Shown piece by piece: positions 14,571 through 27,036 of a stretch of DNA of 64,000 nucleotides. The notes beneath the pieces were generated by a model that ran no database searches, was not told where the DNA came from, and saw nothing but the letters and a program-made list of their open reading frames with translations. Within the stretch, counting starts at the first letter, position 1. Each line of letters begins with the position of its first letter. The stretch is from a virus. Both the position numbers and the translations under genes were made by a program. The stretch lies in UHGV virus genome UHGV-0312702, one strand, 5' to 3'.

Positions 14571-16187
14571 TCAACGTCTAAGCCCCTCATATGGGTTTCC
14601 TCTCACTAAGTCTGTGTGAGCACCCATTGATGGTGGCTTGAATAATTTAACTTCGTTAAGACTGTTGAAAGCATCACTGGTAGCATCCACTTGGTCATCT
14701 TTAGTTTTACCATCACCACAAAAGCCTTCAAGCTCTTGGAAGTAAGCTTCATTCCAACTACCTCTCAAGACTTTTACAAGCCCAGCTTCAGAAGCAGCAG
14801 AAAACCCCGCAAATCGGGTAACTTTGTCTTTGTTTGTTGGTTTAGCTCTTGCTCGATAACCTTTCTCGGCAAGTTTCCTGATGAGGGATGTTGCGTAGGA
14901 TTTACCAGCAGCGCCTGGGTCTTGAGGGATAAAAATACCAGTTCGCTTACCGTCACTTTCAGCAGTCAAATTAATTTGTGTTTCGACTCCAGAGGGTCTA
15001 TCTCTAAATCTTACTACATCAATGATATAATAGCAACCGTCTTTTTTAGATTTACCCATCTTAACACCTGCTGTCCAGTCTGGATTAGGGTTAATCTCAG
15101 ATGGTAAAGTTGCTGCTAAGTCCCATGCCCTGACATCGAATACGTCTTCTGGGAGTGAATCAACAATCTCACACCACTGTCTTTGCCAATAGTTTGAACC
15201 TTCTGCACGAGCCTTCCAGTTACCGAAACGAAGTCTTGCAACGTTTACAGGAGTGTTGTTTTCCAACTTACCACGATACTTTGGTTCTAAGAAGTCAAGA
15301 ATTGGGTTATCATCAATCGTACCGGAGATGAAGGTGTATGTTTGAGGAATCTCAAGAGGGAACATTTCAAGAATCTTGTCTCTTTCCCAATCAGAAACCA
15401 TCACACCATCATTCATCACATACCAACGAATACGACCACACTTTTCAGGGTCTGGATAACCTTCTTCATCTAAGAATGGTTCTACCCAATCATAAATAAA
15501 ATGGTCCCTGTCTGGGTTCATGGAAATCTTCATGTATGAGTCACCTTCAGCACCAGAACGTAGACGAGTCTGTAGGTATGAAATCTGTGAAGCAGAGAAG
15601 TGTGTACCTTCGTCAAAGTAAATAGCTGAGTATTCAATACCCTGATGACCTTCAGCGTGCTTTTCAAGTTCTAGGTAGGTAAACTTGATAGTTGCCCCAG
15701 AAGGGAATGTGATAGTCATCTTCTGCTCGTGAGGAACCCCACCAAACTTACCAAACAGTTTCTTTGCAGCAGGCCACAAACCACCTTGTAACTGTGTCGT
15801 ATTTCGACGGAAATATACAGCATTATAATTAGGGTCTTCAATAAATCTTAAAGAGTCCATTAATAATGCAGCAGTTTTACCAGCACCAGCAGCACCACCA
15901 TATAGAACCAAGTCAGCATTGGTGTTTAAAAAGACCTCTTGAGAACCCGGCTGAGGGGCTACATAATTCTTATCAGTCATTAATTTGAAGATAAGTCTAA
16001 CTTGGTCTGGTGTGTATCTTAATAAAGTCAGAATTTGAGTTGGAAGGAATTTAGAGGGGTCTTTACCGAATGATTTAATAATTTCTTTTACTTCATCAGA
16101 AAGCCCCAACTCTCCAGCTAGGACTTTCCTAACATCTTCCACTCGCTTCTGCTTAACAGCGTTTAAGTCCATTAAGCACCTCCGCAA
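14571..16187 (-). CDS. terL: terminase large subunit, 538 aa
   Basis: Walker A ATPase motif (LVLYGGAAGAGKTAAL) in N-terminal half, nuclease-sized C-terminal half, followed by portal gene. Confidence 0.85.
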   Translation of the reverse strand: MRRCLMDLNAVKQKRVEDVRKVLAGELGLSDEVKEIIKSFGKDPSKFLPTQILTLLRYTPDQVRLIFKLMTDKNYVAPQPGSQEVFLNTNADLVLYGGAAGAGKTAALLMDSLRFIEDPNYNAVYFRRNTTQLQGGLWPAAKKLFGKFGGVPHEQKMTITFPSGATIKFTYLELEKHAEGHQGIEYSAIYFDEGTHFSASQISYLQTRLRSGAEGDSYMKISMNPDRDHFIYDWVEPFLDEEGYPDPEKCGRIRWYVMNDGVMVSDWERDKILEMFPLEIPQTYTFISGTIDDNPILDFLEPKYRGKLENNTPVNVARLRFGNWKARAEGSNYWQRQWCEIVDSLPEDVFDVRAWDLAATLPSEINPNPDWTAGVKMGKSKKDGCYYIIDVVRFRDRPSGVETQINLTAESDGKRTGIFIPQDPGAAGKSYATSLIRKLAEKGYRARAKPTNKDKVTRFAGFSAASEAGLVKVLRGSWNEAYFQELEGFCGDGKTKDDQVDATSDAFNSLNEVKLFKPPSMGAHTDLVRGNPYEGLRR

Positions 16188-16193
16188 ATAGAA

Positions 16194-16394
16194 TTATTCA
16201 GAGTCTGTAGCAGTCTCTTCTTTCTTAACTTCGAACTTTGCATCAACAGCATCAAGAAGTTCATCCATAGATGCTTCTTTGATATCGATACCAGTGGCTA
16301 CAGATAGTCTGTCTGCAATTGCCATGATAGTATTCTGCATAAACTCTAACTTCTTGTTAGCTTCATAAAGTTCTTTATAAACGGTCTCGCTCAT
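16194..16394 (-). CDS. hypothetical small acidic protein, 66 aa
   Basis: ORF immediately upstream of terminase. Confidence 0.4.
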   Translation of the reverse strand: MSETVYKELYEANKKLEFMQNTIMAIADRLSVATGIDIKEASMDELLDAVDAKFEVKKEETATDSE

Positions 16395-16616
16395 TATGTT
16401 TTCTCCAAATAATTAATTTTGTTTCTCCTTAAAAAAGACGGCACAGAGACCGTCAAGGAGAAACCACAATGTACGTCAGAGACATACTGTATAAGGCTTC
16501 TTATAAAGTATAACTCTGTAAAAAAGCCCTGTCTAAAAATACTCTTCGGTAGCGAAAGGAAGAATACTTATAGCAGGGCATTATTATTATTTTAATTGAG
16601 AGAGAGTAAAATAACT

Positions 16617-16692
16617 TGGAGAATCCGAAGGGACTCGAACCCTTATAAACCTGTTTTGCAGACAGGCACATAGCCATTTCTGTCACGGATTC
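16617..16692 (-). tRNA. tRNA-Cys (anticodon GCA)
   Basis: Hand-folded cloverleaf: acceptor CGGATTC pairs with GAATCCG, T-loop TTCGAGT, anticodon loop CTGCAAA, CCA encoded. Confidence 0.75.
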
Positions 16693-16696
16693 AAAT

Positions 16697-16789
16697 TGGA
16701 GGAAGATACCAGACTTGAACTGGTACACCGATTTCTCAGCTACTGGCAGTTTAGCAAACTGCTCCCTTACCTTTTAGGGTTAATCTTCC
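16697..16789 (-). tRNA. tRNA-Ser (anticodon GCT), class II with long variable arm
   Basis: Acceptor GGAAGAT/ATCTTCC, anticodon stem GCAGT/ACTGC with loop TTGCTAA, long variable arm, T-loop TTCAAGT. Confidence 0.7.
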
Positions 16790-16790
16790 A

Positions 16791-17525
16791 TTATTTCTGT
16801 AATGCGCTCTTCATTTCTGGTGTTGCAATAGTGTCAATCACACCAGTTTTACAAGCATCATCAAACCAGTCTGGTAAGATACCTGCTAAGAACCCATTGA
16901 TATTCGTTTTAAGGTACTCTGCAATAAGGGCAGCTTCTTCTTCAATCATCTGCACAACTTCATCTGCATAAGCTGTAATCTTTGAGATACCTTCATTAAT
17001 CTTACTAACAGCCTGATTAGCTAAATCAGAAACAGTATCAAGACCCTTATCAATAGCATCTTGTAAGTCACTTAATACATCATTAACGCTGTCTAGTGTA
17101 TCATTAATAGCATCAATAGCTTTTTGACCATACTCTGTAGCAACACCCATAATACCGCTGAATGGTGTACAACCAACTTGTTCTCCCGCTGCACCCATAA
17201 CATTGGAATATCCCTTTGCTACCTGCATACGTGATGAAAACTCGTCAATAGACTTTTGACCGTAGTCTGTTAGGGTCTTAGTAGTTGCTGTAGTGCTTGT
17301 CAGACTCGTTGTAAAGCTGTTTAGAAGGACTGTTGTAAGTCCAGCAGCAACAAGTTTTTCCTTCATTGCAGGGTCTGTTACAGAGCTAATAGAGCTTACA
17401 AGTGATGTAGAGGCAGCTACGGTTCCACCTAGAACTGCTGCACCAGTAATAAGGGGGTTAGAAAACCCTTTACCAGTTTTTAAGAGATTAAAAATCTCCT
17501 TACCTTGTCCTGTCATCTCTTTCAT
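16791..17525 (-). CDS. hypothetical Ser/Thr-rich protein embedded in tRNA island, about 245 aa
   Basis: ORF-track start (17588, GTG) would overlap tRNA-Phe; first ATG that clears the tRNA is at 17525. Confidence 0.5.
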   Translation of the reverse strand: MKEMTGQGKEIFNLLKTGKGFSNPLITGAAVLGGTVAASTSLVSSISSVTDPAMKEKLVAAGLTTVLLNSFTTSLTSTTATTKTLTDYGQKSIDEFSSRMQVAKGYSNVMGAAGEQVGCTPFSGIMGVATEYGQKAIDAINDTLDSVNDVLSDLQDAIDKGLDTVSDLANQAVSKINEGISKITAYADEVVQMIEEEAALIAEYLKTNINGFLAGILPDWFDDACKTGVIDTIATPEMKSALQK

Positions 17526-17543
17526 TAAGCACCTTTGAAATTG

Positions 17544-17618
17544 GTAGTCCAGTGGGATTTGAACCCTCTTCTCATGTTTTTCAGACACGCGCTTTAACCA
17601 TATAAGCTACTTGGACTA
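17544..17618 (-). tRNA. tRNA-Phe (anticodon GAA)
   Basis: Acceptor TAGTCCA/TGGACTA, anticodon stem CGTGT/ACATG, loop CTGAAAA, T-loop TTCAAAT. Confidence 0.7.
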
Positions 17619-17623
17619 TAAAT

Positions 17624-17700
17624 TGGGGTGACCTACGGGATTTGAACCCGTATAGACCATGTTCACAGCATGGGTCATTACCATTTATGATAAGGCCACA
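17624..17700 (-). tRNA. tRNA-His (anticodon GTG)
   Basis: Anticodon stem CCATG/CATGG with loop CTGTGAA; discriminator C; CCA encoded. Confidence 0.7.
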
Positions 17701-17730
17701 TTTAAGGACTCTCGTAAGAACCCTTAGAAG

Positions 17731-17806
17731 TGGCAGCGGCATAAGGATTTGAACCTTAATAGGACAGCTTCAGAGACTGTTGCATTGCCAGTTATGCTAT
17801 ACCGCT
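17731..17806 (-). tRNA. tRNA-Gln (anticodon CTG)
   Basis: Acceptor AGCGGTA/TGCCGCT, anticodon loop CTCTGAA, T-loop present. Confidence 0.65.
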
Positions 17807-17811
17807 AAATT

Positions 17812-17890
17812 TGGTACTCCATATCGGATTCGAACCGATACATAACACAGATTTTAAGTCTGGCCTCTCTGCCAATTGGAGTAATGGAGC
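17812..17890 (-). tRNA. tRNA with leucine anticodon TAA but class I architecture (short variable loop)
   Basis: Acceptor GCTCCAT/ATGGAGT, D-arm CTCC-AATTGGCAG-AGAG, anticodon stem CCAGA/TCTGT loop CTTAAAA, 7-nt variable loop, T-arm ATCGG-TTCGAAT-CCGAT, discriminator A. Confidence 0.6.
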
Positions 17891-17892
17891 AT

Positions 17893-17968
17893 TGGCGGGG
17901 GATGTTGGAATTGAACCAACTTCTTCGATTTCAAAGACCGAGGTTTTAACCTTGTAAACTAATCCCCT
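17893..17968 (-). tRNA. tRNA-Gln (anticodon TTG)
   Basis: Anticodon stem TCGGT/ATCGA loop CTTTGAA; T-arm GTTGG-TTCAATT-CCAAC; A1-C72 mismatch. Confidence 0.65.
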
Positions 17969-17976
17969 TTAAATCT

Positions 17977-18534
17977 TTACTTTCTTAGTGGATGAATAAA
18001 GAATGCCAACATAACTCTTTCCCTTGAGAATGCTCTTTCTTCTGGGACAACACTTTTAAGTTTCCACCCAACATAAATTCTCCAGTAAAATTGTTTACCA
18101 AAGACTTTAATTGATGGGATAAAAGCAAATAATCCCCAAGCATTGCTGTTCCACATTAGGAGATAACCTGTCTGATTATCTTCAGGGTTAGAACTTACGT
18201 TGATATTACCTTTCCACTTAGTAACATCTTTTACATCTCTTCCTAACACATGGTAAGAGAAGTTATAAGCTTTGTTTCTCCAGAGCCATCCAACTCTCTG
18301 CATATAAACACCGAGCTTACCAATCTTTCTAATCTTAGCCCATCGTTTGATATGACCTGCATCACCATCAATTGGGTTGTCATAAGTCTCCATCCATCTG
18401 AAACCAAAAGGCAGATGACCTTTCTTCTCACTGTAGAATGGGACTACGAAAGGTGCTAAGATAACTGCCAAGATTGCTGCAAATGGCTCTAACAAAGCTA
18501 AGAAAATCCATGAAGCATACTTCAAATATCTCAT
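17977..18534 (-). CDS. hypothetical membrane protein embedded in tRNA island, 185 aa
   Basis: ORF with hydrophobic N-terminus (IFLALLEPFAAILAVILAPFVVPF). Confidence 0.5.
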   Translation of the reverse strand: MRYLKYASWIFLALLEPFAAILAVILAPFVVPFYSEKKGHLPFGFRWMETYDNPIDGDAGHIKRWAKIRKIGKLGVYMQRVGWLWRNKAYNFSYHVLGRDVKDVTKWKGNINVSSNPEDNQTGYLLMWNSNAWGLFAFIPSIKVFGKQFYWRIYVGWKLKSVVPEERAFSRERVMLAFFIHPLRK

Positions 18535-18773
18535 TGTCTAATCCTAGTAAGGAGGTAAACATTATTATTTGTTTCTGAGTTTTCTGGTAAAGCTGTCTCA
18601 AAATTGACGCTTTTAAATTGTCTCCCACCAAAGTAATGACCAATAAATTTTTGTACTTTTATTGGGTCACATTCCCAGCCAACTTTCAAGAAAATGTGGG
18701 TATCTATAGTGGGAACCCTTACAAACTCAATACTATTGGAATTTTCATGTTCAACGACGATTAATGTTTGCAT
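18531..18773 (-). CDS. hypothetical protein, 80 aa
   Basis: ORF overlapping the start of the downstream gene by 4 nt. Confidence 0.4.
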   Translation of the reverse strand: MQTLIVVEHENSNSIEFVRVPTIDTHIFLKVGWECDPIKVQKFIGHYFGGRQFKSVNFETALPENSETNNNVYLLTRIRQ

Positions 18774-18791
18774 AAATCTCTCTTATTTATC

Positions 18792-18867
18792 TGGCGCAGG
18801 ATAAGGGACTTGAACCCCTATTAACAGCTTCGTAGACTGTTGCTCTATCCATTTGAACTAATCCTGC
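18792..18867 (-). tRNA. tRNA-Arg (anticodon ACG)
   Basis: Acceptor GCAGGAT/ATCCTGC, anticodon loop CTACGAA, CCA encoded. Confidence 0.7.
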
Positions 18868-18872
18868 AAAAT

Positions 18873-18950
18873 TGGTGTTCCAAGACGGATTCGAACCGTC
18901 ACTAGTACAAGGTTTGAGCTTGCATCCTCTGCCAATTGGGATACTGGAAC
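18873..18950 (-). tRNA. tRNA with leucine anticodon CAA but class I architecture
   Basis: Acceptor GTTCCAG/TTGGAAC, D-arm TCCC-AATTGGCAG-AGGA, anticodon stem GCAAG/CTTGT loop CTCAAAC, 6-nt variable loop, T-arm GACGG-TTCGAAT-CCGTC; only 84 nt available between flanking tRNAs. Confidence 0.6.
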
Positions 18951-18951
18951 A

Positions 18952-19026
18952 TGGTACTCACTAAAGGACTTGAACCTTTTTCTTCATCTTGTAAGGGTGA
19001 TGTTTTACCATATAAACTAAGCGAGT
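18952..19026 (-). tRNA. tRNA-Val (anticodon TAC)
   Basis: Acceptor ACTCGCT/AGTGAGT, anticodon loop CTTACAA, T-arm AAAGG/CCTTT. Confidence 0.65.
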
Positions 19027-19122
19027 GTGAAAGAGGTCTGAAGTTGTGCCACTAACTCAACTCCGTGGAATTTGTTACGGTCTTCAGTTGACTCAAAGTG
19101 GTCTTTCACTTGACCTCTGAAT
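19027..19122 (-). ncRNA. candidate structured small RNA in tRNA-cluster spacer (not a tRNA)
   Basis: 96-nt spacer with complementary ends (AGAGGTC ... GACCTCT) and nested complementary segments (GTGAAAGA/TCTTTCAC, CTGAAG/CTTCAG); no T-loop motif. Confidence 0.3.
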
Positions 19123-19198
19123 TGGTGCTCCCACAAGGATTCGAACCCTGATAAGTTGCTTACAAGGCAACCGTAATAGCCAATTATACGATAGGAGC
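19123..19198 (-). tRNA. tRNA-Thr (anticodon TGT)
   Basis: Anticodon stem GTTGC/GCAAC with loop CTTGTAA; T-loop TTCGAAT. Confidence 0.7.
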
Positions 19199-19205
19199 AT
19201 TAATT

Positions 19206-19280
19206 TGGAGCATCCAGAGGGAATCGAACCCTCAACCTCAGTTTGGAAGACTGTAATTTTCCCGTTTAAACTATGGATGC
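19206..19280 (-). tRNA. tRNA-Gly (anticodon TCC)
   Basis: Acceptor GCATCCA/TGGATGC perfect 7 bp, anticodon loop CTTCCAA. Confidence 0.7.
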
Positions 19281-19286
19281 ACTAAT

Positions 19287-19362
19287 TGGTGGAGAAGCAG
19301 GGAATTGAACCCTGTACTTAAGTTTGCAAAACTTATGTTTTAACCATGTAAACTACATCCCC
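19287..19362 (-). tRNA. tRNA-Ala (anticodon TGC)
   Basis: Anticodon stem TAAGT/ACTTA loop TTTGCAA; G3-U70 wobble pair present (Ala identity element); T-arm CAGGG-TTCAATT-CCCTG. Confidence 0.7.
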
Positions 19363-19368
19363 AATGTT

Positions 19369-19444
19369 TGGTACAGGTGGAGGGAATTGAACCCATCGTC
19401 TTACTGATTAAGAGTCAGCCGCATAACCATTTTGCTACACCTGC
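19369..19444 (-). tRNA. tRNA-Lys (anticodon CTT)
   Basis: Acceptor GCAGGTG/CACCTGT, anticodon loop CTCTTAA. Confidence 0.65.
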
Positions 19445-19451
19445 ATTAATT

Positions 19452-19528
19452 TGGTACACCTAGAGAGATTCGAACTCACACTGAGCAGATTCTAAGTCTG
19501 CTGCCTCTACCAGTTGGGCTATAGGTGC
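19452..19528 (-). tRNA. tRNA with leucine anticodon TAG but class I architecture
   Basis: Acceptor GCACCTA/TAGGTGT, D-arm GCC-CAACTGGTAGA-GGC, anticodon stem GCAGA/TCTGC loop CTTAGAA, 5-nt variable loop. Confidence 0.6.
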
Positions 19529-19786
19529 ATTAAATCTTTTTAGAGAACTTCTAAGAACCTAAGCAACAAGGTTCCACAACAAGCTGTAATAACCTTAGAA
19601 GCCCTCTAAAAAGACCTAAAAAGGTCTTTGCATAGTCTTGTTTAATCCGGTGACTAGAACCTTTGGAGAGCTTGATATTATCTCTTCTCCGTGACACCTA
19701 CTAGGTGCTTTACTGTGCGTGTACGACAATACACGAGGGATACCAAAGCAACATCCGAATGAAGCTTGGCTTTAAATCTTATTAGG

Positions 19787-19874
19787 CGGTAAGTAAAGGA
19801 GTCGAACCCTCACCGTATCTCTACAGTGGCAACTGTTTTCAAGACAGTTTGGCTACCATTAGCCGCTACCTACC
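19787..19874 (-). tRNA. tRNA-Ser (anticodon TGA), class II
   Basis: 88 nt, acceptor GGTAGGT/ACTTACC, anticodon stem ACTGT/ACAGT loop CTTGAAA, long variable arm; CCA not encoded. Confidence 0.6.
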
Positions 19875-19887
19875 CCTAATAAGACTT

Positions 19888-19970
19888 TGGCATGGGACGG
19901 AGGAGTTGAACCCCTTTGAAACGGTTTTGGAGGCCGTTGCTCATGCCTTAGAGTCTTAACATCGTCCCAC
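19888..19970 (-). tRNA. tRNA-Trp (anticodon CCA), atypically long 5' half
   Basis: Acceptor GTGGGAC/GTCCCAT, anticodon loop CTCCAAA, T-arm GGGG-TTCAACT-CCTC; D-arm region about 7 nt longer than canonical. Confidence 0.5.
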
Positions 19971-20112
19971 ACTATAATTCGAAACTTACCGTATTATCTC
20001 AACACTGTAAAGCCCCTTCTCAGATTATTTACATGTTCTGGAAAACATGAGATACAGACCACCTCCCTACAGGAAGACCCGCTTAGGTCGTCTAAGTAAT
20101 CTGCTAACTAAT

Positions 20113-20189
20113 TGGCACACCCTACAGGATTCGAACCTGTAACTAACGATTTAGAAGACCGTTGCTCTATCCAATTGAACTAAGGGTGC
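20113..20189 (-). tRNA. tRNA-Arg (anticodon TCT)
   Basis: Anticodon stem ACGGT/ATCGT loop CTTCTAA; acceptor GCACCCT/AGGGTGT. Confidence 0.65.
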
Positions 20190-20526
20190 ATTAATCTTTA
20201 AAGACTCTCTTAGAAAGCCCTTAAAGATGCCCACCTTATTAATCATACCGTGGGCTAGTACGCCAAATTCTTTGATGAGGGATTGGAAGACCTCACTGGT
20301 GTTTAGCCTATCAAGCTACTGCCAGAAAAACATTGTCGTTTGCATTTATTTTAAATTTGCAAAATAGACGCTACGCAACGAAAACTATTCAGAATATGTA
20401 CAACAAATTTCCCCACATTGTGTTACGTCTAACGCTCATGTATTGGTGTTTGAATTATACATATTATGAATTATTTTTAGTTACTATAAAGTAGTCACAT
20501 CTCAATGTCAACAACTTTATTGAAAT

Positions 20527-20601
20527 TGGTTGTAGGTGAGGGTATCGAACCCTCTTCTAACGGTTATCAGCCGTTTGCATTACCATTTATGCTAACCCAC
20601 A
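20527..20601 (-). tRNA. tRNA-Ile (anticodon GAT)
   Basis: Anticodon stem AACGG/CCGTT loop CTGATAA; T-arm GAGGG-TTCGATA-CCCTC. Confidence 0.7.
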
Positions 20602-20602
20602 A

Positions 20603-20680
20603 TTGGAGGTTCAGGTGGGAATCGAACCCACATTCATAGGGCTTATGAAACCCCTGCATTACCTTATCTGCGACTGAACC
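20603..20680 (-). tRNA. tRNA-Met (anticodon CAT), elongator-like
   Basis: Perfect acceptor GGTTCAG/CTGAACC, anticodon stem GGGGT/GCCCT loop TTCATAA. Confidence 0.6.
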
Positions 20681-20684
20681 ATAT

Positions 20685-20760
20685 TGGTAGAAGTGGAGGG
20701 ATTCGAACCCATCGCCTGTCAGATTAAAAGTCTGCCGCATCACCATTCTGCTACACTTCC
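20685..20760 (-). tRNA. tRNA-Lys (anticodon TTT)
   Basis: Acceptor GGAAGTG/CACTTCT, anticodon loop CTTTTAA. Confidence 0.65.
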
Positions 20761-20909
20761 ATTAAATTATCTTTGTAGATAAGCTACCCAGACTTGCTTA
20801 AGGTCTGTAGCGATGTGCCTTGTTGGGTTTAAATCTAGAATTTACCCTTTCACCCTTTGTGGTCGCATACTCACAGGTAAGCTTAATAGCTCACCTACAA
20901 AGATAATTA

Positions 20910-21041
20910 CCAGACCGTTGTTTATCATCTTAAGTGCTACCATTACACCAACTCGACATCTGCCGAGTGAAGGAATCGAACCTTCGCCTTTTCTTTACCG
21001 GAGAAATAGATTGTTTAAGTTTTGCTGTAAACGGTCTTCTG
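20910..21041 (-). repeat. bounded spacer unit D (CCAGACC ... TGCTGTAAACGGTCTTCTG) containing a tRNA-like T-arm
   Basis: Shares both end motifs with units at 21055, 21484, 21637; contains GAAGG-AATCGAA-CCTTC (tRNA T-arm signature at 20969-20985) but no canonical anticodon loop or acceptor pairing. Confidence 0.5.
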
Positions 21042-21054
21042 TAAATTTGTTGAG

Positions 21055-21128
21055 CCAGACCAAGTTTTAAATTTTCAAAATTAAATTGGCTTGAAATTTC
21101 ATACATTCTTGCTGAATTTGGTCTTCTG
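21055..21128 (-). repeat. bounded spacer unit A (CCAGACC ... TGCTGAATTTGGTCTTCTG)
   Basis: Same terminal motifs as units B, C, D; the two ends are mutually complementary (AGACC/GGTCT). Confidence 0.5.
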
Positions 21129-21215
21129 CTCCTTTAAAGAATACTCGCAAGAACTCTTTAAGGGAGGGGCTAAATAGCCCTCTCAAAACATCATTTTGAA
21201 ATACTTATTATAATT

Positions 21216-21293
21216 TGGCGGTTACGAAGGGATTTGAACCCTCATCATCTCCCGTGACAGGGGAGTATTTTAACCAGATTAAACTACATAACC
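21216..21293 (-). tRNA. tRNA-Asp (anticodon GTC)
   Basis: Anticodon stem CTCCC/GGGAG loop CTGTCAC; acceptor GGTTATG/CGTAACC. Confidence 0.65.
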
Positions 21294-21298
21294 TTTAT

Positions 21299-21386
21299 TG
21301 GTGTGCCGTGTAGGAGTCGAACCTACCGAGTCTCAATGACAAGGGATTTACAGTCCCCACCGCTACCATCTACGGGATAACGACAC
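21299..21386 (-). tRNA. tRNA-Tyr (anticodon GTA), class II
   Basis: 88 nt; acceptor GTGTCGT/ACGGCAC, anticodon stem GGGA/TCCC loop CTGTAAA, long variable arm. Confidence 0.65.
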
Positions 21387-21395
21387 ATTTTAATT

Positions 21396-21472
21396 TGGCG
21401 GTTAGTCAGGGATTCGAACCCTGTGCCATTCGCTTAACAGGCGACCGCACATACCTTATGTGCTTCCTAACC
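21396..21472 (-). tRNA. tRNA-Asn (anticodon GTT)
   Basis: Anticodon loop CTGTTAA; T-arm CAGGG-TTCGAAT-CCCTG. Confidence 0.65.
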
Positions 21473-21483
21473 TTAATACATTG

Positions 21484-21542
21484 CCAGACCGTGTTTTTCT
21501 TTTATCCGCAAAAAGTAGTTTGTTGCTGAATACGGTCTTCTG
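21484..21542 (-). repeat. bounded spacer unit B (CCAGACC ... TGCTGAATACGGTCTTCTG)
   Basis: 59-nt unit between tRNA-Asn and the second CAT tRNA with the same end motifs. Confidence 0.5.
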
Positions 21543-21548
21543 CAAAAT

Positions 21549-21625
21549 TGGAGGCGGGTGCAGGAGTCGAACCTGCCGATACCATGCTAATGAGACATGT
21601 GAGACGCCCTTTCTCTATACCCGCA
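21549..21625 (-). tRNA. tRNA with anticodon CAT, second copy (initiator Met or Ile-lysidine type), atypical
   Basis: Anticodon stem CATGT/GCATG loop CTCATTA (pyrimidine at 37); acceptor pairs only with a 1-72 mismatch or a 1-nt register shift; D-stem GAGA/TCTC. Confidence 0.5.
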
Positions 21626-21636
21626 ATTCTTAATGA

Positions 21637-21709
21637 CCAGACCAAATCTCTTCTTTGTCCGATTGAATGTCAGATGAATAAGATTAAATTTGCTGTAATT
21701 GGTCTTCTG
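21637..21709 (-). repeat. bounded spacer unit C (CCAGACC ... TGCTGTAATTGGTCTTCTG)
   Basis: 73-nt unit between the CAT tRNA and tRNA-Glu with the same end motifs. Confidence 0.5.
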
Positions 21710-21716
21710 TCAAAAC

Positions 21717-21791
21717 TGGTGTCGTAGACAGGATTCGAACCTGCGAGCAACTGATTGAAGGTCAGGTGGCTAACCATTTGCCTTCTACGAC
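21717..21791 (-). tRNA. tRNA-Glu (anticodon TTC), C at position 33
   Basis: Perfect acceptor GTCGTAG/CTACGAC, anticodon stem CTGA/TCAG with loop CCTTCAA. Confidence 0.55.
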
Positions 21792-21792
21792 A

Positions 21793-22149
21793 TTAAACCA
21801 TTGTAATTCCACTATGAACCTCTCTGTGGCAATTAGCGCATAGCAAAACACATTTATCAAGTTCTTTTTTAACCTTTTCCCAAGATGCACCCATAAGTTT
21901 TGATGGTGTATTCTCTTTTTCGTTTGGGTTAAGGTGATGCCATTCTAAAGCATTTTTACATTTATTATAGCCACAAATTATGCAACTATCGCCATAAAGC
22001 TTATATGCTTTCTCCCTATTGGCATCCTCTCTAAGTTTTGTCCTTAATGCACAACATTTTAGACAATTTACTCTATTACCGGCGTTACCATTCTTATGAA
22101 TGCTATGTTCAGTTAAACCATGAACTGGACATTCTTTTAAAAATCTCAT
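21793..22149 (-). CDS. HNH homing endonuclease, about 118 aa
   Basis: Cys-rich zinc-finger region plus HNH motif (EWHHLNP ... LLCANCHREVH); ORF-track start at 22227 overlaps tRNA-Pro, so the start is placed at the ATG at 22149. Confidence 0.7.
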   Translation of the reverse strand: MRFLKECPVHGLTEHSIHKNGNAGNRVNCLKCCALRTKLREDANREKAYKLYGDSCIICGYNKCKNALEWHHLNPNEKENTPSKLMGASWEKVKKELDKCVLLCANCHREVHSGITMV

Positions 22150-22166
22150 AGTAACCCCTTTAAATT

Positions 22167-22243
22167 TGGTCTCTGTTGGAGGACTTGAACCTCCGGCCTT
22201 ACCGCCCCAAACGGAACGCTCTACCAAGCTGAGCTAAACAGAG
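22167..22243 (-). tRNA. tRNA-Pro (anticodon TGG)
   Basis: Perfect acceptor CTCTGTT/AACAGAG, D-arm GCTC-AGCTTGGTA-GAGC, anticodon loop TTTGGGG, T-arm GGAGG-TTCAAGT-CCTCC. Confidence 0.75.
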
Positions 22244-22270
22244 ATAAACTTTTCAAACTCTATGTAACCA

Positions 22271-22299
22271 CTTTAACATTATTTTTTAGTGGTTGTCAA
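22271..22299 (-). promoter_or_regulatory. candidate sigma70-like promoter for the tRNA operon
   Basis: On - strand TTGACA, 17-nt spacer, TTAAAG, about 20 nt upstream of tRNA-Pro. Confidence 0.3.
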
Positions 22300-22408
22300 G
22301 AACTTTTTTAAAATATTTTTCAGTATCTTAGAAAAGCTCTCATTTCGTTTCTATGTAGAACATATTAAAGGGTATCAAACACATTGTCAATACCCTTTTT
22401 AAAACTTT

Positions 22409-23824
22409 TTACCAGATGTAACGGTCAATCATTACTGCTTTGAGCATTACGCTGATTGGGTCAAACTTCTCACCACCAAGCAGGGCTTTTAAAGTGGCTG
22501 GGGAGAACCCTGATACCATTGCTACACCGTTATCCTTAACAGACACTTCGCAAGTACCACTACGGTTTGCTAAGTACCAGAATACCAGTTGTGGCATTTC
22601 GTATCCAGCTTTTTTGTACTTACTACGAATTGCTTCAAAGTTTGTACGACCATTTGCACCATCAACCTGATTGAACTCCATATCAGAGAAGATGATAAGC
22701 TTACTTGGCATATCTTTCTGAGTCAAGTTGTTTCTCTTGCCTGTCTCAAGAATACGGTCAAAAGCTGCTTGTAAGTTGGTTGAACCATATTCAACATGAC
22801 GCATTACCTGACGGTGACGGTTTCGTAAATCACCACTCAGTTCGATGAAATGAGGGTTTGTTGAATAAACCATTAACTCGTTCTTAAAGCAACCTGTATT
22901 GCGTTCTGCTACATACAAGGCAAGTGATACACCAATATCGAGGGCAGTAATTGAGCCAAGATTCACCCAAGACATTGAGCTTGAAACATCAGTCATACAC
23001 AAGATGTTTTCACCTTCTGCCATCCAGTTTGGTAGTGCTTTCCACTGCTCATTAGCAACATCTGCATTACCATACTTGATAGATTTAATCACATCGTATG
23101 GATAAACAGCACCAGCATTAATCTTAGTCTCACCCTTTGATAAGGACTCAACGTAAGCTTTGTAGCGTTCTCCATCTTTACGGTTAAATAATTTTTGGTA
23201 ACGTGCAGCAGCAAGTGAAGGAATCTTACTGTAGTCAATCTTACCAAACTCATTAGCAGAGATTTTTTGTTCAACTGTATCAGATAGTGCAGACAGCAGT
23301 GTGCGGTACTCTTTCTCGCTCAAGTTTGCAAACTTACAGAAACGTTTTACAAACTGTTTGTGACGTGGTTTTACTCGTGGTAACCACTTAGCTGCTAAAC
23401 CTGCTGTTGCAGGGTCTAGTAAAGCTGCTTCTAAATGTTTGAAGGCATCTGTCTCAAAACGAGTACCTACAAAGATTTTGAAGTCATCAAAGCGACCAAG
23501 CTCTGCAATCTTATCCATAATGCGAAGAACCTGTGTAGGCTCTAAAACTTTATCTTCAATCGCTTGAAGTAAAACAGTTCGGAAAGCCTTACGCTCACCC
23601 ATACCTTCTCGTACATCTCGCATATGCAGTAAAATACGAACTGCAACATCAACATCCTCATGCAAAGCTTTGTAGAACAAGTCTGGTAAGATTTCTACAT
23701 TGCTACGGCTAGAACCAGCAGCTTTGTAAAAGTCTACAAGAGCAGACATTGATGAAGTATGGTTTACAGCACCATTTTCAGTTCGACCTGCATGAAGGTG
23801 CGCATGTTTAAATAATTCGCTCAT
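22409..23824 (-). CDS. rsr: Ro60/Rsr-like protein (TROVE-like N-terminal region plus vWA domain), 471 aa
   Basis: C-terminal vWA with MIDAS DxSxS (CMTDVSSSMS) followed by ...LIIFSDMEFN...; segment VYPYDVIKSIKYG ... ENILCMTDVSSSM parallels the Ro60 region preceding its vWA domain; recognition from memory, not searched. Confidence 0.65.
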   Translation of the reverse strand: MSELFKHAHLHAGRTENGAVNHTSSMSALVDFYKAAGSSRSNVEILPDLFYKALHEDVDVAVRILLHMRDVREGMGERKAFRTVLLQAIEDKVLEPTQVLRIMDKIAELGRFDDFKIFVGTRFETDAFKHLEAALLDPATAGLAAKWLPRVKPRHKQFVKRFCKFANLSEKEYRTLLSALSDTVEQKISANEFGKIDYSKIPSLAAARYQKLFNRKDGERYKAYVESLSKGETKINAGAVYPYDVIKSIKYGNADVANEQWKALPNWMAEGENILCMTDVSSSMSWVNLGSITALDIGVSLALYVAERNTGCFKNELMVYSTNPHFIELSGDLRNRHRQVMRHVEYGSTNLQAAFDRILETGKRNNLTQKDMPSKLIIFSDMEFNQVDGANGRTNFEAIRSKYKKAGYEMPQLVFWYLANRSGTCEVSVKDNGVAMVSGFSPATLKALLGGEKFDPISVMLKAVMIDRYIW

Positions 23825-23905
23825 ATTTTACTCTCTTCTCTCATTTGTTGTTTGATGTGACAGACTTTAGAGCAACTTTGTAGAGTCTGTCAACACCTTT
23901 TAAAA

Positions 23906-24277
23906 TTATTTTTTAAGAGTCGCTACAGCAGAGAACGTTGGTTTGTTATCTGTCTGAGGTTGACCACCGTTATCGGGGGTCTTCTTAGTGTCTGCTGCAA
24001 GTGCTTTCATCTCACCTGCTGAGTGAGTAAAGATAGTTTTACCAACTTCAATCATGCTCTTGATGGTTACGTCATCTGTATTTAACCCGAACTCTGCAAG
24101 CTTAGCAGCATCCCTTGTAACAATCGCTTCAAATAACTTTGCAGCAAACTCAGCAGAATTGTCAATGGTCAGTTGAGCTTTTACAAGTGAGCTTTTGTTA
24201 CGAGAGCCTTTTGGTCTTCCAGATGGGTTTCCAGATTGGCCTTTTTTAAACTGGCCTTTGTTTGTTCTGTTTTTCAT
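23906..24277 (-). CDS. hypothetical basic protein with GNPSGRPKG motif, 123 aa
   Basis: ORF; N-terminal KGQSGNPSGRPKGSRNK suggests nucleic-acid binding. Confidence 0.45.
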   Translation of the reverse strand: MKNRTNKGQFKKGQSGNPSGRPKGSRNKSSLVKAQLTIDNSAEFAAKLFEAIVTRDAAKLAEFGLNTDDVTIKSMIEVGKTIFTHSAGEMKALAADTKKTPDNGGQPQTDNKPTFSAVATLKK

Positions 24278-24525
24278 TGCTATGCCTCTTATAAGACCTC
24301 TTAAAAGGCTTTTAAGATAAAAGATAGATATCCAGAAAGATATCTGTTTAAATAGCCTTTTTAGAGGAACCTTTTAAGTTATCTTCTAAGTATTTATAAG
24401 CCTATACCTTGTCAAGCCCTTTGTCAACAACTTTTTTAACTTGCAATAGTTCTTGACTTGTTGTATGGATTACTGTACCATCTTACTTAAAGCTGTAGGT
24501 CTGCCTTGTTCTACAAAGGAGACTT

Positions 24526-24688
24526 AATGAGAAAATCAAACAACCCGAAGAAAGGTAAGAATACCAATCACTGTAAGGAATCAAAAAGGGTAGAATTAAT
24601 CTACTATTCATCCTCTGAAATTGGTCTGTACCTGTTCTTTCAAAATTACAGAAGACAAGAGGATTATCTATGTGTAGTTCCCAATTAG
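24526..24688 (+). CDS. hypothetical small basic protein, about 53 aa
   Basis: ATG at 24526 preceded by AAGGAGA; the longer ORF-track start at 24506 lacks an RBS. Confidence 0.35.
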
Positions 24689-24903
24689 AAATCGCAGATA
24701 TTATAGATTTATATCAAACTGCAAAGAGTCATGGCTATATAACCTCAATTGGAAAGAATAGTCACTATGATGCTTTGACTGGAATGTATTTCAGGGCAAT
24801 GGCTCAATCTAGTGAACAGCACTTGATGGTTTCTTCCAGTGAGTTTACTTCGTTTCTCTATTGCAGCAAAATTATAAATCGCAGGAGAACTGAAAAATGT
24901 TAA
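24670..24903 (+). CDS. hypothetical protein, 77 aa
   Basis: ORF with AAGAGGA RBS. Confidence 0.4.
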   Translation: MCSSQLEIADIIDLYQTAKSHGYITSIGKNSHYDALTGMYFRAMAQSSEQHLMVSSSEFTSFLYCSKIINRRRTEKC

Positions 24904-25487
24904 CAGTAAGTTTTAATTACAATAGTGACGGCTCTGTATCAATTAATTCACCATATGCAAATGACCTATTGAAAGAGCTAGTTAATCAGTGTGATAGAGG
25001 TCTTCACTATGTTCCAAATTCTTTTAAGCAGAAGACTATTGCTAATAACTTGATGCGCGTGACGGTTACAACATCAAACCCAAACTATGACATTGATAGT
25101 GAAAGTCCTTACTCTTTAGTGGCTCTTGGAGAATGTAGTCAATTCAAACTTGTATGTCACGACTCAGAAACATTTCTTAAGGTGTTTTCAAACCTTATTC
25201 ATAATAACAAGTATGGGTATGTTGATGGGAGTGTTAACTTCTATCCAGCGAACTATACCTGTCTATTAATTGATAATATGAGAAGTAGCAAGCAAGAACC
25301 TACAGAGATTTCATTTGATGTGAACTCTAGTCCAGACGCAGAAACAAGTAATAACTTTGATATGAGTTACGCATTATCACTTAGCAAGAAATCCGAGTTC
25401 ATTGATTATGTCAATGGATTTGGTTTTAAGTTTGACGAGAGCATGAATCTCAAAAAGCTTAAGAACCTACTTAAGACCAAAGCTTAA
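24897..25487 (+). CDS. hypothetical protein, 196 aa
   Basis: ORF in + strand block. Confidence 0.5.
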   Translation: MLTVSFNYNSDGSVSINSPYANDLLKELVNQCDRGLHYVPNSFKQKTIANNLMRVTVTTSNPNYDIDSESPYSLVALGECSQFKLVCHDSETFLKVFSNLIHNNKYGYVDGSVNFYPANYTCLLIDNMRSSKQEPTEISFDVNSSPDAETSNNFDMSYALSLSKKSEFIDYVNGFGFKFDESMNLKKLKNLLKTKA

Positions 25488-25534
25488 GTATAAACAGGGG
25501 CTAATGCCCCTTTATCTATTTATAAGGATATTTA

Positions 25535-25906
25535 ATGAAGGCTAAGAGTGCAAAAGACTTTTATTGCTTCCTACAATCCTATATTAATTCCGTGGAGAAA
25601 GGTGAGAGATATAATCTTAACGATGTTATTGCATCACCTTTAACATGGAGACTAAGTAGATGGCCTGAAGAAGATATCACACCAACTAGTGAACACCCTA
25701 CCTACAAACCAGATATTAATCTCCCAGATTCAGAAAAGTTACTATACCCAATGTTCCACATTGTTGGGCTTGGTACGTTTCTTATGGATATTCAGTATGT
25801 AATTGGTAAGGGTTATAAGGTAGAAGGTATTGTTGTTGGTGATGTATCTCCACAACATAAAGGCTATTTTAGATTAAACGCACGTTTAGAGGCTAAAAAG
25901 AAATGA
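25535..25906 (+). CDS. hypothetical protein, 123 aa; paralog of the N-terminal domain of the next gene
   Basis: Shares KAK...RY...WPE.DI...YKPD...LLY...MD.QY...LNA.L pattern with the first about 120 aa of 25903-27036. Confidence 0.55.
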   Translation: MKAKSAKDFYCFLQSYINSVEKGERYNLNDVIASPLTWRLSRWPEEDITPTSEHPTYKPDINLPDSEKLLYPMFHIVGLGTFLMDIQYVIGKGYKVEGIVVGDVSPQHKGYFRLNARLEAKKK

Positions 25907-27036
25907 TTAAAGCAAAGACTTACCCAGACTTCAAAGAGTTTGTAAAGGGCTTCGTTGCAAATGTAAAGGCTGGTAAGAGATATGATTTTAGAACATATCA
26001 AGAAGCTATTTTGCCACTTACCTATAGTTCATATTGGCCTGAAGCTGATATCGCAGAAGTTGAGAAGTTTGACTACAAACCAGACTACAAAGTACCTTTT
26101 AGTGATGATTTGCTTTACAGCATCGGTGCTCAAATGAGAACTTCTGACTTCTTCATGGATTTACAATATGCAATTGTCAATGGTAAAGATGTTGATACAG
26201 TGTATTGTGAATGGTTGGCAAGAGTTAAGCCGTTCTCAATGTTAAATGCTAAGTTGAAGGATGCTATCAAACCACCATCAATCACTCAGCAACCAACCAA
26301 TCAGACAGTTAATGAGGGCGGTACACTTACCTTAAGCATTGTTGCAGCTAATGCCACAGGGTATCAGTGGAAGAAGGGTGATGAGGATATCACTAGTGCT
26401 ACCTCTGCAACTTACACAAAACAGTCAGTTGTTCCTTCTGATGCTGGTTCATACACTTGCGTTGTGTCTGGAGAGGGTGGAACAAGTGTAACTTCAGATG
26501 CAGCAACAGTCACTGTGAATGCCTTACCAGTGATTACCAAGCAACCTTCTAACCAGACCATTAATGAAGGTGGAAACATCAGCTTAGCAGTTACTGCAAC
26601 AGGTGCAACTGGTTATCAATGGAAGAAAGATGGTTCTGACATCCCTTCAGCTACAAATGCCACATATAGCAAATCTGGTGCACTTCCAGCAGATGCTGGT
26701 TCATACACTTGCGTTGTAACAGGTGCGGGAGGTTCTGTAACTTCTAACCCTGCAACAGTTACTGTGAAAGCTCTACCAGTTATCACTCAACAACCAACCA
26801 ATCAGGAAATCACTGAAGGTGAGACCTTAACGCTGAATGTTGTGGCAACAGGTGCAACAGGTTATCAGTGGAAGAAGGGTGGGGAAAACATCCCAGATGC
26901 AACGACTGCAACTTACACCAAAGAGGGTGCAACTGCTGCTGATGCAGGAAGCTACACTTGTGTAGTTACTGGCGCAGGTGGCTCTGTAACATCTAGTGCG
27001 GCAACAGTTACAGTTAACCCAGCAGGGGAGGCATAA
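25903..27036 (+). CDS. protein with paralogous N-terminal domain and three tandem Ig-like repeats, 377 aa
   Basis: Three about 83-aa repeats each with PTNQT(V/I)NEGG ... ATGYQWKK ... AGSYTCVV(S/T)G ... ATVTV; stop overlaps the endolysin start. Confidence 0.6.
   Translation: MIKAKTYPDFKEFVKGFVANVKAGKRYDFRTYQEAILPLTYSSYWPEADIAEVEKFDYKPDYKVPFSDDLLYSIGAQMRTSDFFMDLQYAIVNGKDVDTVYCEWLARVKPFSMLNAKLKDAIKPPSITQQPTNQTVNEGGTLTLSIVAANATGYQWKKGDEDITSATSATYTKQSVVPSDAGSYTCVVSGEGGTSVTSDAATVTVNALPVITKQPSNQTINEGGNISLAVTATGATGYQWKKDGSDIPSATNATYSKSGALPADAGSYTCVVTGAGGSVTSNPATVTVKALPVITQQPTNQEITEGETLTLNVVATGATGYQWKKGGENIPDATTATYTKEGATAADAGSYTCVVTGAGGSVTSSAATVTVNPAGEA

Follow-up and report, generated by a model that had tools for sequence, protein, structure and literature searches.

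The viral genome UHGV-0312702, analysed here as one stretch of 64,000 nucleotides (the window), encodes a Ro60-like protein immediately beside a tRNA island, and four structured RNA elements within that island, E1 to E4, belong to an RNA family that accompanies genes for proteins of the same DUF2828 family in other phages and in bacterial genomes. This RNA family exists, its terminal stem covaries and it is linked to DUF2828 genes. Judged by comparison of sequences, the RNA half of the system is strongly supported, and we estimate a probability of about 0.6 that the Ro60-like protein and partner RNAs of the E1–E4 type constitute a Y-RNA-type ribonucleoprotein (RNP) of this phage. The window belongs to a Felixounavirus, that is, a FelixO1-like coliphage, with 95% identity to Escherichia phage nataliec over 4 kb and matches to 332 phage records.

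Ro60–Y RNA particles are, to our knowledge, a classic RNA-surveillance system, and TROVE annotation of the protein has been the sole route by which cases in bacteria and phages were traced. Ro60/Rsr proteins hold Y RNA on their outer surface and take single-stranded RNA ends into the cavity. Among phages, mycobacteriophages carry Ro together with YrlA (PMC4201824), and Thermus phage phiLo encodes Ro60 with Yrl1/2, forming an RNP that binds the host polynucleotide phosphorylase (PNPase) (PMC12135203). A PhageMaP preprint (bioRxiv 10.1101/2024.10.10.617714, 2024) described gp130 of Bas63 (Escherichia phage JohannRWettstein) as Ro60-like and encoded directly upstream of tRNA genes, and speculated that some of the annotated tRNA genes beside it might be Y RNAs. 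Deletion of g130 cripples Bas63 on a host carrying Ppl, and T7 is rescued on such a host when gp130 is supplied by a plasmid or by the genome of T7 itself (10.1101/2024.10.10.617714). The window protein is identical to Bas63 gp130 at 462 of 471 residues (98%), and the gap between gene and tRNA-Pro, 164–165 nt in Bas63, is ~98% identical to that of the window. The protein half of the system is thus already known, since a 98%-identical protein has been reported as Ro60-like, tRNA-adjacent, possibly Y-RNA-associated and active against Ppl. A first-pass annotation of this DNA had suggested that the gene is part of a plausible, undescribed Ro60/Rsr–Y RNA module; that interpretation is partly supported, being right in kind but, as regards the protein, already published. 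The preprint names neither a specific RNA nor a wider RNA family, and whereas it suspects annotated tRNA genes, the candidates presented here are four spacer elements that are not annotated tRNAs. We found no description of the E1–E4 family in the literature searched, and Rfam 15 holds no family for it.

A Ro60 architecture in the DUF2828/DUF7788 family

The gene lies at 22409..23824 (minus strand, as do all window features given below) and encodes a 471-aa protein that GenBank and RefSeq records label 'vWFA protein', 'DUF2828 family protein' or 'RNA-binding protein'. The protein matches Pfam DUF2828 (PF11443; E 7e-29, 101.3 bits against a curated cut-off of 29) and DUF7788 (PF25043; E 5e-43, 147.4 bits against a cut-off of 27.1), is covered end to end by PHROG 850 'RNA-binding protein' (E 6e-183) and has more than 2500 homologs. 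No match to TROVE (PF05731), vWA_Ro60 (PF25045) or VWA was obtained in the Pfam search at E<=1, while mycobacteriophage Bxz1 gp220, a recognised Ro60 ortholog used as positive control, scored 9e-50 with TROVE and 4e-54 with vWA_Ro60. By sequence, the window protein is therefore not a TROVE protein, contrary to the profile membership that the first-pass annotation had anticipated. Searches of PDB sequences with phmmer and with the family profile returned nothing significant, Ro60 (1yvp) appearing weakly at E 0.75, and NCBIfam and PADLOC gave no match.

The fold nevertheless points to Ro60. An AlphaFold2 model built on 39 homologs (predicted local distance difference test score 88.9, predicted template modelling score 0.88) shows a closed helical-repeat ring with a von Willebrand factor A (vWA) domain as its cap. 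When this model was compared with the PDB by Foldseek, the best 10 matches were all full-length Ro60, Rsr or phage Ro60 structures (E 2e-8 to 1.5e-6), with best template modelling scores of 0.45–0.65 to Ro60-type structures and a structure-based identity to Ro60 of 10–16%. The all-helical N-terminal ring region (residues 1 to ~264, DUF2828; 23033..23824) aligns structurally only with the HEAT-repeat toroid of Ro60. The vWA domain (residues 275–455, Pfam DUF7788; 22460..23002) carries the MIDAS (metal-ion-dependent adhesion site) motif DVSSS at 22976-22990, within TDVSSSM at residues 278–284, and the MIDAS residues D279, S281, S283, T349 and D381 show no substitution across 39 homologs with 41–89% identity. 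The open reading frame (ORF) and its MIDAS had been recognised in the first-pass annotation, as had a parallel to Ro60 in the stretch before the motif (VYPYDVIKS to DVSSSM); this stretch proved to be the only part that aligns by sequence with Bxz1 gp220, where residues 222–307 of the family profile aligned over 86 columns (hhalign E 4e-5, probability 70%). According to the predicted structure, the window protein has the Ro60 architecture with an intact MIDAS, in a separate sequence family, DUF2828/DUF7788.

Four RNA elements in the tRNA island

E1–E4 span 20907-21712, in the opening 1.5 kb of the tRNA island located after the Ro60-like gene. The window contains four exact copies of CAGAAGACC and four of GGTCTGG, all on the gene strand and confined to the island, and these pair up as the four elements; R1, a covariance model of the family, found no E-type copies elsewhere in the window. 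Structured non-tRNA RNAs had been suspected in the island by the first-pass annotation, and the range it proposed, 20910-21709, coincides with E1–E4. Neither an Infernal search with the Y_RNA and YrlA models, which it had recommended, nor a permissive Rfam search (E<=1) over 15000-26000 detected a Y_RNA or YrlA in the window, the latter returning tRNAs and noise only.

Three of the elements are of a short type with cores of ~59–74 nt. E1 (21634..21712), between tRNA-Glu and tRNA-Met, scored 33.4 bits with R1 (E 1e-5) and consists of an outer stem UGAC/GUCA, an internal loop AGA/G, an inner stem GACCAA/UUGGUC, the motif UUACAGCAA and a 3' UGG. E2 (21481..21545; 30.7 bits, folding z -2.4), between tRNA-Met and tRNA-Asn, has the outer stem UUGC/GCAA, and E3 (21052..21131; 25.4 bits) has GAGC/GCUC, both with the motif AUUCAGCAA. 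The long, YrlA-like E4 (20907..21044) shares the terminal module and has the outer stem UUAC/GUAA. In the minimum free energy (MFE) folds, the 4-bp outer stem thus differs in every paralog around an invariant AGA/G internal loop, and the inner stem comprises 7–8 bp; in all four elements the stem is followed by UUACAGCAA or AUUCAGCAA and the 3' end is CUGG. Members of the family as a whole have a G at the 5' end and C-UG(G/U/A) at the 3' end. Their 6-bp terminal stem keeps its structure while its sequence varies, an unpaired UUACAGCAA-type motif follows immediately 3' of its 5' strand, and the interior is variable.

The RNA family is linked to DUF2828 genes in other phages and in bacteria

To a set of 75 non-Felix IMG/VR loci two further loci were added, giving 77 phage loci whose proteins are 39–51% identical to the window protein. 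In these loci the 9-mer TTACAGCAA occurred 26 times on the strand of the DUF2828 gene and 4 times on the other, against an estimated chance expectation of ~3 per strand in 798 kb. A descriptor comprising the 6-bp stem, the motif and the 3' strand matched 146 times on the gene strand and 42 times on the opposite strand; among matches that also had a TG tail, which the descriptor does not require, the counts were 61 and 3. With R1, 47 of the 77 loci yielded a total of 63 matches at E<0.005; every match was on the gene strand, and 57 lay no more than 500 nt from the gene. Over 80 distinct sequences the terminal stem was paired in 98.3% of cases; each of its six pairs showed changes on both sides, and the first, a G-C, was nearly invariant; in the R1 training rows the pairing is present by construction because the descriptor demanded the stem. 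The short-element alignment was trimmed in the interior, as a plain MAFFT alignment had placed the 3' strands out of register.

The linkage also held in the reverse direction. Among 48 IMG/VR stretches that carry the RNA of one clade, 40 had a DUF2828 gene just upstream on the same strand; seven stretches were too short to tell and one lacked the gene, so the association was found in 40 of 41 testable cases. In the exception, L161 (element at 1776-1834), there is no DUF2828 homolog within 11 kb upstream, and the gene may be lost or very divergent. In an independent set of 80 loci from GTDB bacterial genomes, 35 of 36 R1 matches fell on the gene strand, and at E<0.01, 24 loci had 28 matches, most of them under 350 nt upstream of the gene.

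The association extends beyond tRNA islands. Co-oriented tRNAs occurred within 1 kb of the DUF2828 gene in ~28% of loci, and 45 loci had none within 5 kb; a search of 13 tRNA-less DUF2828 loci with Rfam at the gathering level gave no match. The RNA module adjoins genes without a tRNA within 5 kb (e.g. in L015, L019, L021, L022, L068 and L080) and genes in bacterial-genome loci. Together with the 40 of 41 cases of the reverse test, the YrlA-like Rfam scores of some members (see below) and the restriction of the copies to the island within the 64-kb window, this makes it unlikely that the protein acts alone, blocking Ppl or another host factor through its vWA/MIDAS face, and that E1–E4 are unrelated spacers that aid the processing or stability of the tRNA precursor. 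Such an explanation would draw on the rescue of T7 by gp130 by itself on Ppl hosts, on MIDAS being a classic protein-ligand site, and on the fact that E1 and E2 take up nearly all of the space between adjacent tRNAs, with linkers of 6–11 nt left over; the ~28% of loci with nearby co-oriented tRNAs might then mean only that both share an 'accessory' region.

The terminal module also frames larger inserts, several of which consist of a T arm, a closed acceptor stem and a D arm. Another long class with the same module carries the conserved insert GAACCUUUCUGGAGGGGAAAGCAAAAACUCGCC (L013 4277-4371, L014 3134-3233, L018 150-281, L020 1266-1374 and L034 4735-4829), and further insert classes occur in L017/L020/L023 and in L053/L063/L071/L085.

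At the other extreme, mini-elements of 38–46 nt end in CUGAAGGA or CUGGAGG, which in many loci is the Shine-Dalgarno sequence of the DUF2828 gene itself (e.g. L018 1761-1798, L013 4951-4989, L020 2856-2893, L063 4904-4946 and L034 4947-4988). This position suggests translational autoregulation, and binding of the motif by the protein would fit, because the mini-elements run into the Shine-Dalgarno sequence of the protein's own gene. The same observation could be taken to mean that all of the elements are cis-acting operators, or signals for the processing or stability of the DUF2828 mRNA (autoregulation, 3' end protection), and not trans-acting partners, as could the position of the element in another clade, where it begins 30–36 nt past the stop codon. 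The arrangement in the window speaks against this: the copies are found downstream of the gene at a distance of 0.7–2.9 kb, with tRNAs and separate promoter-like sites in between, and the 5' untranslated region (UTR) of the Ro60-like gene is without the motif. Loci with several tandem copies and with large tRNA-like or other inserts are likewise difficult to reconcile with a purely cis-acting role, to which we assign only a small probability. Autoregulation would in any case be compatible with a protein–RNA particle, an operator that mimics the partner RNA being a common arrangement.

Some distant DUF2828 genes, in L003 (1-5566) and L002 (4554-4913), stand beside NAD+ salvage genes (NAPRTase, phosphoribosyl pyrophosphate synthetase, nicotinamide mononucleotide transporter, NadR-like) or a cREC domain gene; these neighbourhoods are of the counter-defence or RNA-repair type.

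E4 has the permuted tRNA design of YrlA Y RNAs

E4 ends 1.4–1.5 kb downstream of the stop codon of the Ro60-like gene on the same strand, within the 4 kb on the same strand as a Ro60 gene that has been used to define YrlA RNAs (PMC4201824). Its MFE structure (RNAfold) comprises the closing stem, a V hairpin (20990-21006), a T arm (GAAGG UUCGAUU CCUUC; 20969-20985), a closed 7-bp acceptor-like hairpin with a tetraloop (ACUCGGC AGAU GUCGAGU; 20951-20968) and a D arm (GUGU AAUGGUA GCAC; 20934-20948). YrlA (RF02553) has the same permuted tRNA design, with V hairpin, T arm, closed acceptor-like stem and D arm within a closing stem, and the order in E4 is that of the Rfam YrlA consensus as shown for Bxz1. 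In orthologs of E4 from Suspvirus and Mooglevirus the T and D arms are unchanged, and the acceptor-like stem has been swapped wholesale with compensation (ACUCGGC/GUCGAGU, ACACG/CGUGU or ACCCUUC/GAAGGGU). Across 14 variants from three genera, 99.4% of alignment cells were paired, compared with 41–49% when the partners were slid, and three pairs changed on both sides.

Rfam recognised YrlA beside DUF2828 genes in L003 (7707-7815; 40.9 bits, E 1e-5) and L086 (9497-9612; 38.9 bits, E 5e-5), with a third match at E 0.04. As a positive control, the same model detected the Bxz1 RNA 190 nt upstream of the Bxz1 Ro gene at 32.5 bits; the two DUF2828-associated scores equal or exceed this value, while the gathering score of the family is 69 bits and relatives of E4 in L003 and L086 span 29–41 bits. 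A second covariance model, R2, built from Felix-group E4 sequences only, recovered the YrlA-scoring RNAs of L003 and L086 and ~20 more, at full length and on the gene strand only; it did not match the Bxz1 YrlA. Since a model derived from E4 recovers RNAs that Rfam scores as YrlA, E4 belongs to the set of YrlA-like RNAs that accompany DUF2828 genes. A pattern match in L097 turned out to be a genuine tandem tRNA pair and was dropped. The only occurrence of the YrlA 5' motif, GGCGAAGG at 20988, was considered as a Ro-binding motif of the YrlA kind and rejected, as it overlaps the T stem and lacks conservation.

That E4 is the decayed remnant of two adjacent tRNA genes and E1–E3 are repeat scars of tRNA-cassette shuffling, none of them functional, is highly improbable: Rfam does see no more than a partial tRNA match in E4 (22 bits), one GenBank record annotates a tRNA there, and the T arm of one tandem tRNA with the D arm of the next can mimic YrlA (PMC4201824), but neither the T arm nor the D arm varies, a short loop closes the acceptor-like stem, whose changes are fully compensated across three genera, the terminal module is kept in phages whose proteins are only 35–50% identical, and no ARAGORN tRNA overlaps E4.

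A putative Y-RNA-type particle

The system resembles Ro60/Rsr–Y RNA RNPs in the ring and vWA/MIDAS fold of its protein, in the small RNAs located within a few kb on the same strand, and in the division of the RNAs into one class with a permuted tRNA-like module and one without, as in YrlA and YrlB, the counterparts here being E4 and the short elements. It differs in that Ro60/Rsr proteins match TROVE and vWA_Ro60 by sequence and the window protein matches neither; in the conserved RNA motif, which is GNCGAAN0-1G or GGUCCGA in the RNAs of Ro60/Rsr and here is UUACAGCAA beside a 6-bp terminal stem; and in the candidate RNAs of the window phage being embedded in a tRNA cluster.

In the mechanism that we propose, E1–E4 would be transcribed within the tRNA precursor and released by tRNA-processing enzymes. 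The protein would bind the terminal stem together with the motif, as Ro60 binds the stem of Y RNA, and the variable or tRNA-like module might tether other factors or control their access; analogy suggests an exoribonuclease such as PNPase, or enzymes that handle tRNA. Such an RNP could remodel RNA metabolism during infection and contribute to counter-defence, with autoregulation through the Shine-Dalgarno mini-elements as a by-product of direct binding. Within this scheme, physical binding between protein and RNA, processing of the RNAs, the tethered partner and any role of the RNAs in the Ppl phenotype are inferences.

Several points weigh against the particle. E1–E4 are candidate stable RNAs and putative ligands of the protein. 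The R1 training rows were picked by a descriptor that demanded the stem; model E-values are rough, and at the thresholds used R1 found no match in 30 of the 77 phage loci and 56 of the 80 genome loci. The folding-energy z-scores of the elements are modest (-1.1 to -2.4). As for E4, its alignment represents only about three independent lineages; its 151 nt match neither Rfam Y_RNA nor YrlA even at E<=10; and it has no conserved counterpart of the YrlA 5' motif GNCGAAN0-1G, GGCGAAGG having become GGAGAAGG in several variants. In addition, T7 regains plaquing on Ppl hosts when given gp130 alone, whether on a plasmid or in its own genome (10.1101/2024.10.10.617714). Since gp130 alone suffices, the island RNAs are not required for the anti-Ppl phenotype, at least when gp130 is so supplied; therefore, if the particle forms, its RNAs would serve another role or be substituted by host RNAs in that setting.

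If the particle is real, DUF2828, a family of unknown function with thousands of phage and bacterial members, would gain a testable function, and for gp130, experimentally validated as an anti-defence protein against Ppl, there would be RNAs to consider as cofactors and a defined binding motif open to mutation. Some of the non-tRNA sequence in phage tRNA islands that has lacked an explanation would also be accounted for.

Similarity to dictyostelid Class I RNAs

Dictyostelid Class I RNAs (RF01414) are ~60 nt long, start with a conserved G and end in CUGU; their 6-bp terminal stem is conserved in structure alone, and an 11-nt motif CCUUACAGCAA stands beside its 5' strand (PMC7919456). Every one of these hallmarks was found in many of the phage short elements. 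In both groups the 5' G often follows AA, (CC)UUACAGCAA comes directly after the 5' strand, the interior is variable and rich in A/U, and the 3' end reads C-UG(U); the window copies carry UUACAGCAA or AUUCAGCAA and CUGG in place of CCUUACAGCAA and CUGU. RF01414 was the top-scoring Rfam family for the phage short element L068 3960-4017 (23.4 bits) and also scored E2 (21485-21537) at 20.0 bits and E4 at 12.8 bits, values far below its gathering score of 41.5 and also below the working cut-off of 25 adopted by the authors of the Class I study (PMC7919456). Class I RNAs are reported to be unique to Dictyostelia, with their own Dictyostelium upstream sequence element (DUSE) promoter and a known binder with an RNA recognition motif, Rnp1A (PMC7919456).

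These similarities prompt a broader proposal, namely that DUF2828/DUF7788 proteins and RNAs with a terminal stem and UUACAGCAA represent a second, sequence-unrelated branch of the Ro60–Y RNA type, widespread in phages and prophages and engaged in counter-defence, of which the Class I RNAs would be the eukaryotic members, bound by a DUF2828-type protein. In this full extent the proposal is a long shot; for its phage half alone, a real RNP of the DUF2828/DUF7788 protein with these RNAs, we see a somewhat better than even chance. We know of no link between Class I RNAs and a Ro60-like or DUF2828 protein. The Pfam description of DUF2828 lists plants and other eukaryotes. Were the broader proposal correct, the near-identical design would point to a concrete protein partner to seek for the Class I RNAs, whose mode of action has been in question since 2004.

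The tRNA island and neighbouring genes

Between 16617 and 22243, ARAGORN identified 25 co-oriented tRNA genes, the first of which after the Ro60-like gene is tRNA-Pro(UGG) (22167..22243), also detected by Rfam. A tRNA-Glu(UUC) at 21720-21791, overlooked by ARAGORN, was recognised by Rfam at 55.4 bits, which brings the total to 26; its anticodon stem, as read from the sequence, contains a C-U mismatch. The stop codon of the Ro60-like gene and tRNA-Pro are separated by 165 nt (22244-22408; 25% GC), confirming the distance given in the first-pass annotation, whose range of 22244-23824 therefore corresponds to this gap plus the ORF. The gap contains two matches to the sigma70 promoter consensus (22390..22362 and 22299..22270), for which a promoter function is putative, and a 12-bp hairpin directly after the stop codon (22398..22367). 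The hairpin overlaps the -35 hexamer of the first promoter-like site and may represent an overlap of terminator and promoter. The gap was rejected as a site for a Y RNA in view of its 25% GC, the two promoter-like matches and the lack of a match to any RNA family searched.

An ORF of 118 aa between tRNA-Pro and tRNA-Glu (21793-22149; Pfam HNH, E 1e-4) has the appearance of a mobile homing endonuclease; nataliec, DE7 and Meda carry it, and it is missing from Bas63 and most relatives (89% query coverage). Directly upstream of the Ro60-like gene, a 123-aa DUF5681 protein is encoded at 23906-24277 (E 2e-14), and this gene is kept beside the Ro60-like gene in Ounavirinae.

The spacer at 19027-19122, between tRNA-Thr and tRNA-Val, which the first-pass annotation had listed among its RNA candidates, contains CUGAAGACC and does form a stable hairpin (-28.5 kcal/mol, z -3.4, equalled by 0 of 200 shuffles), but it is matched by neither R1 nor R2 and is not a member of the E family. 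Two larger spacers, 19894-19968 and 20190-20584, gave weak, sub-threshold Rfam matches to tRNA-Sec and tmRNA and may be decayed tRNA-like sequences.

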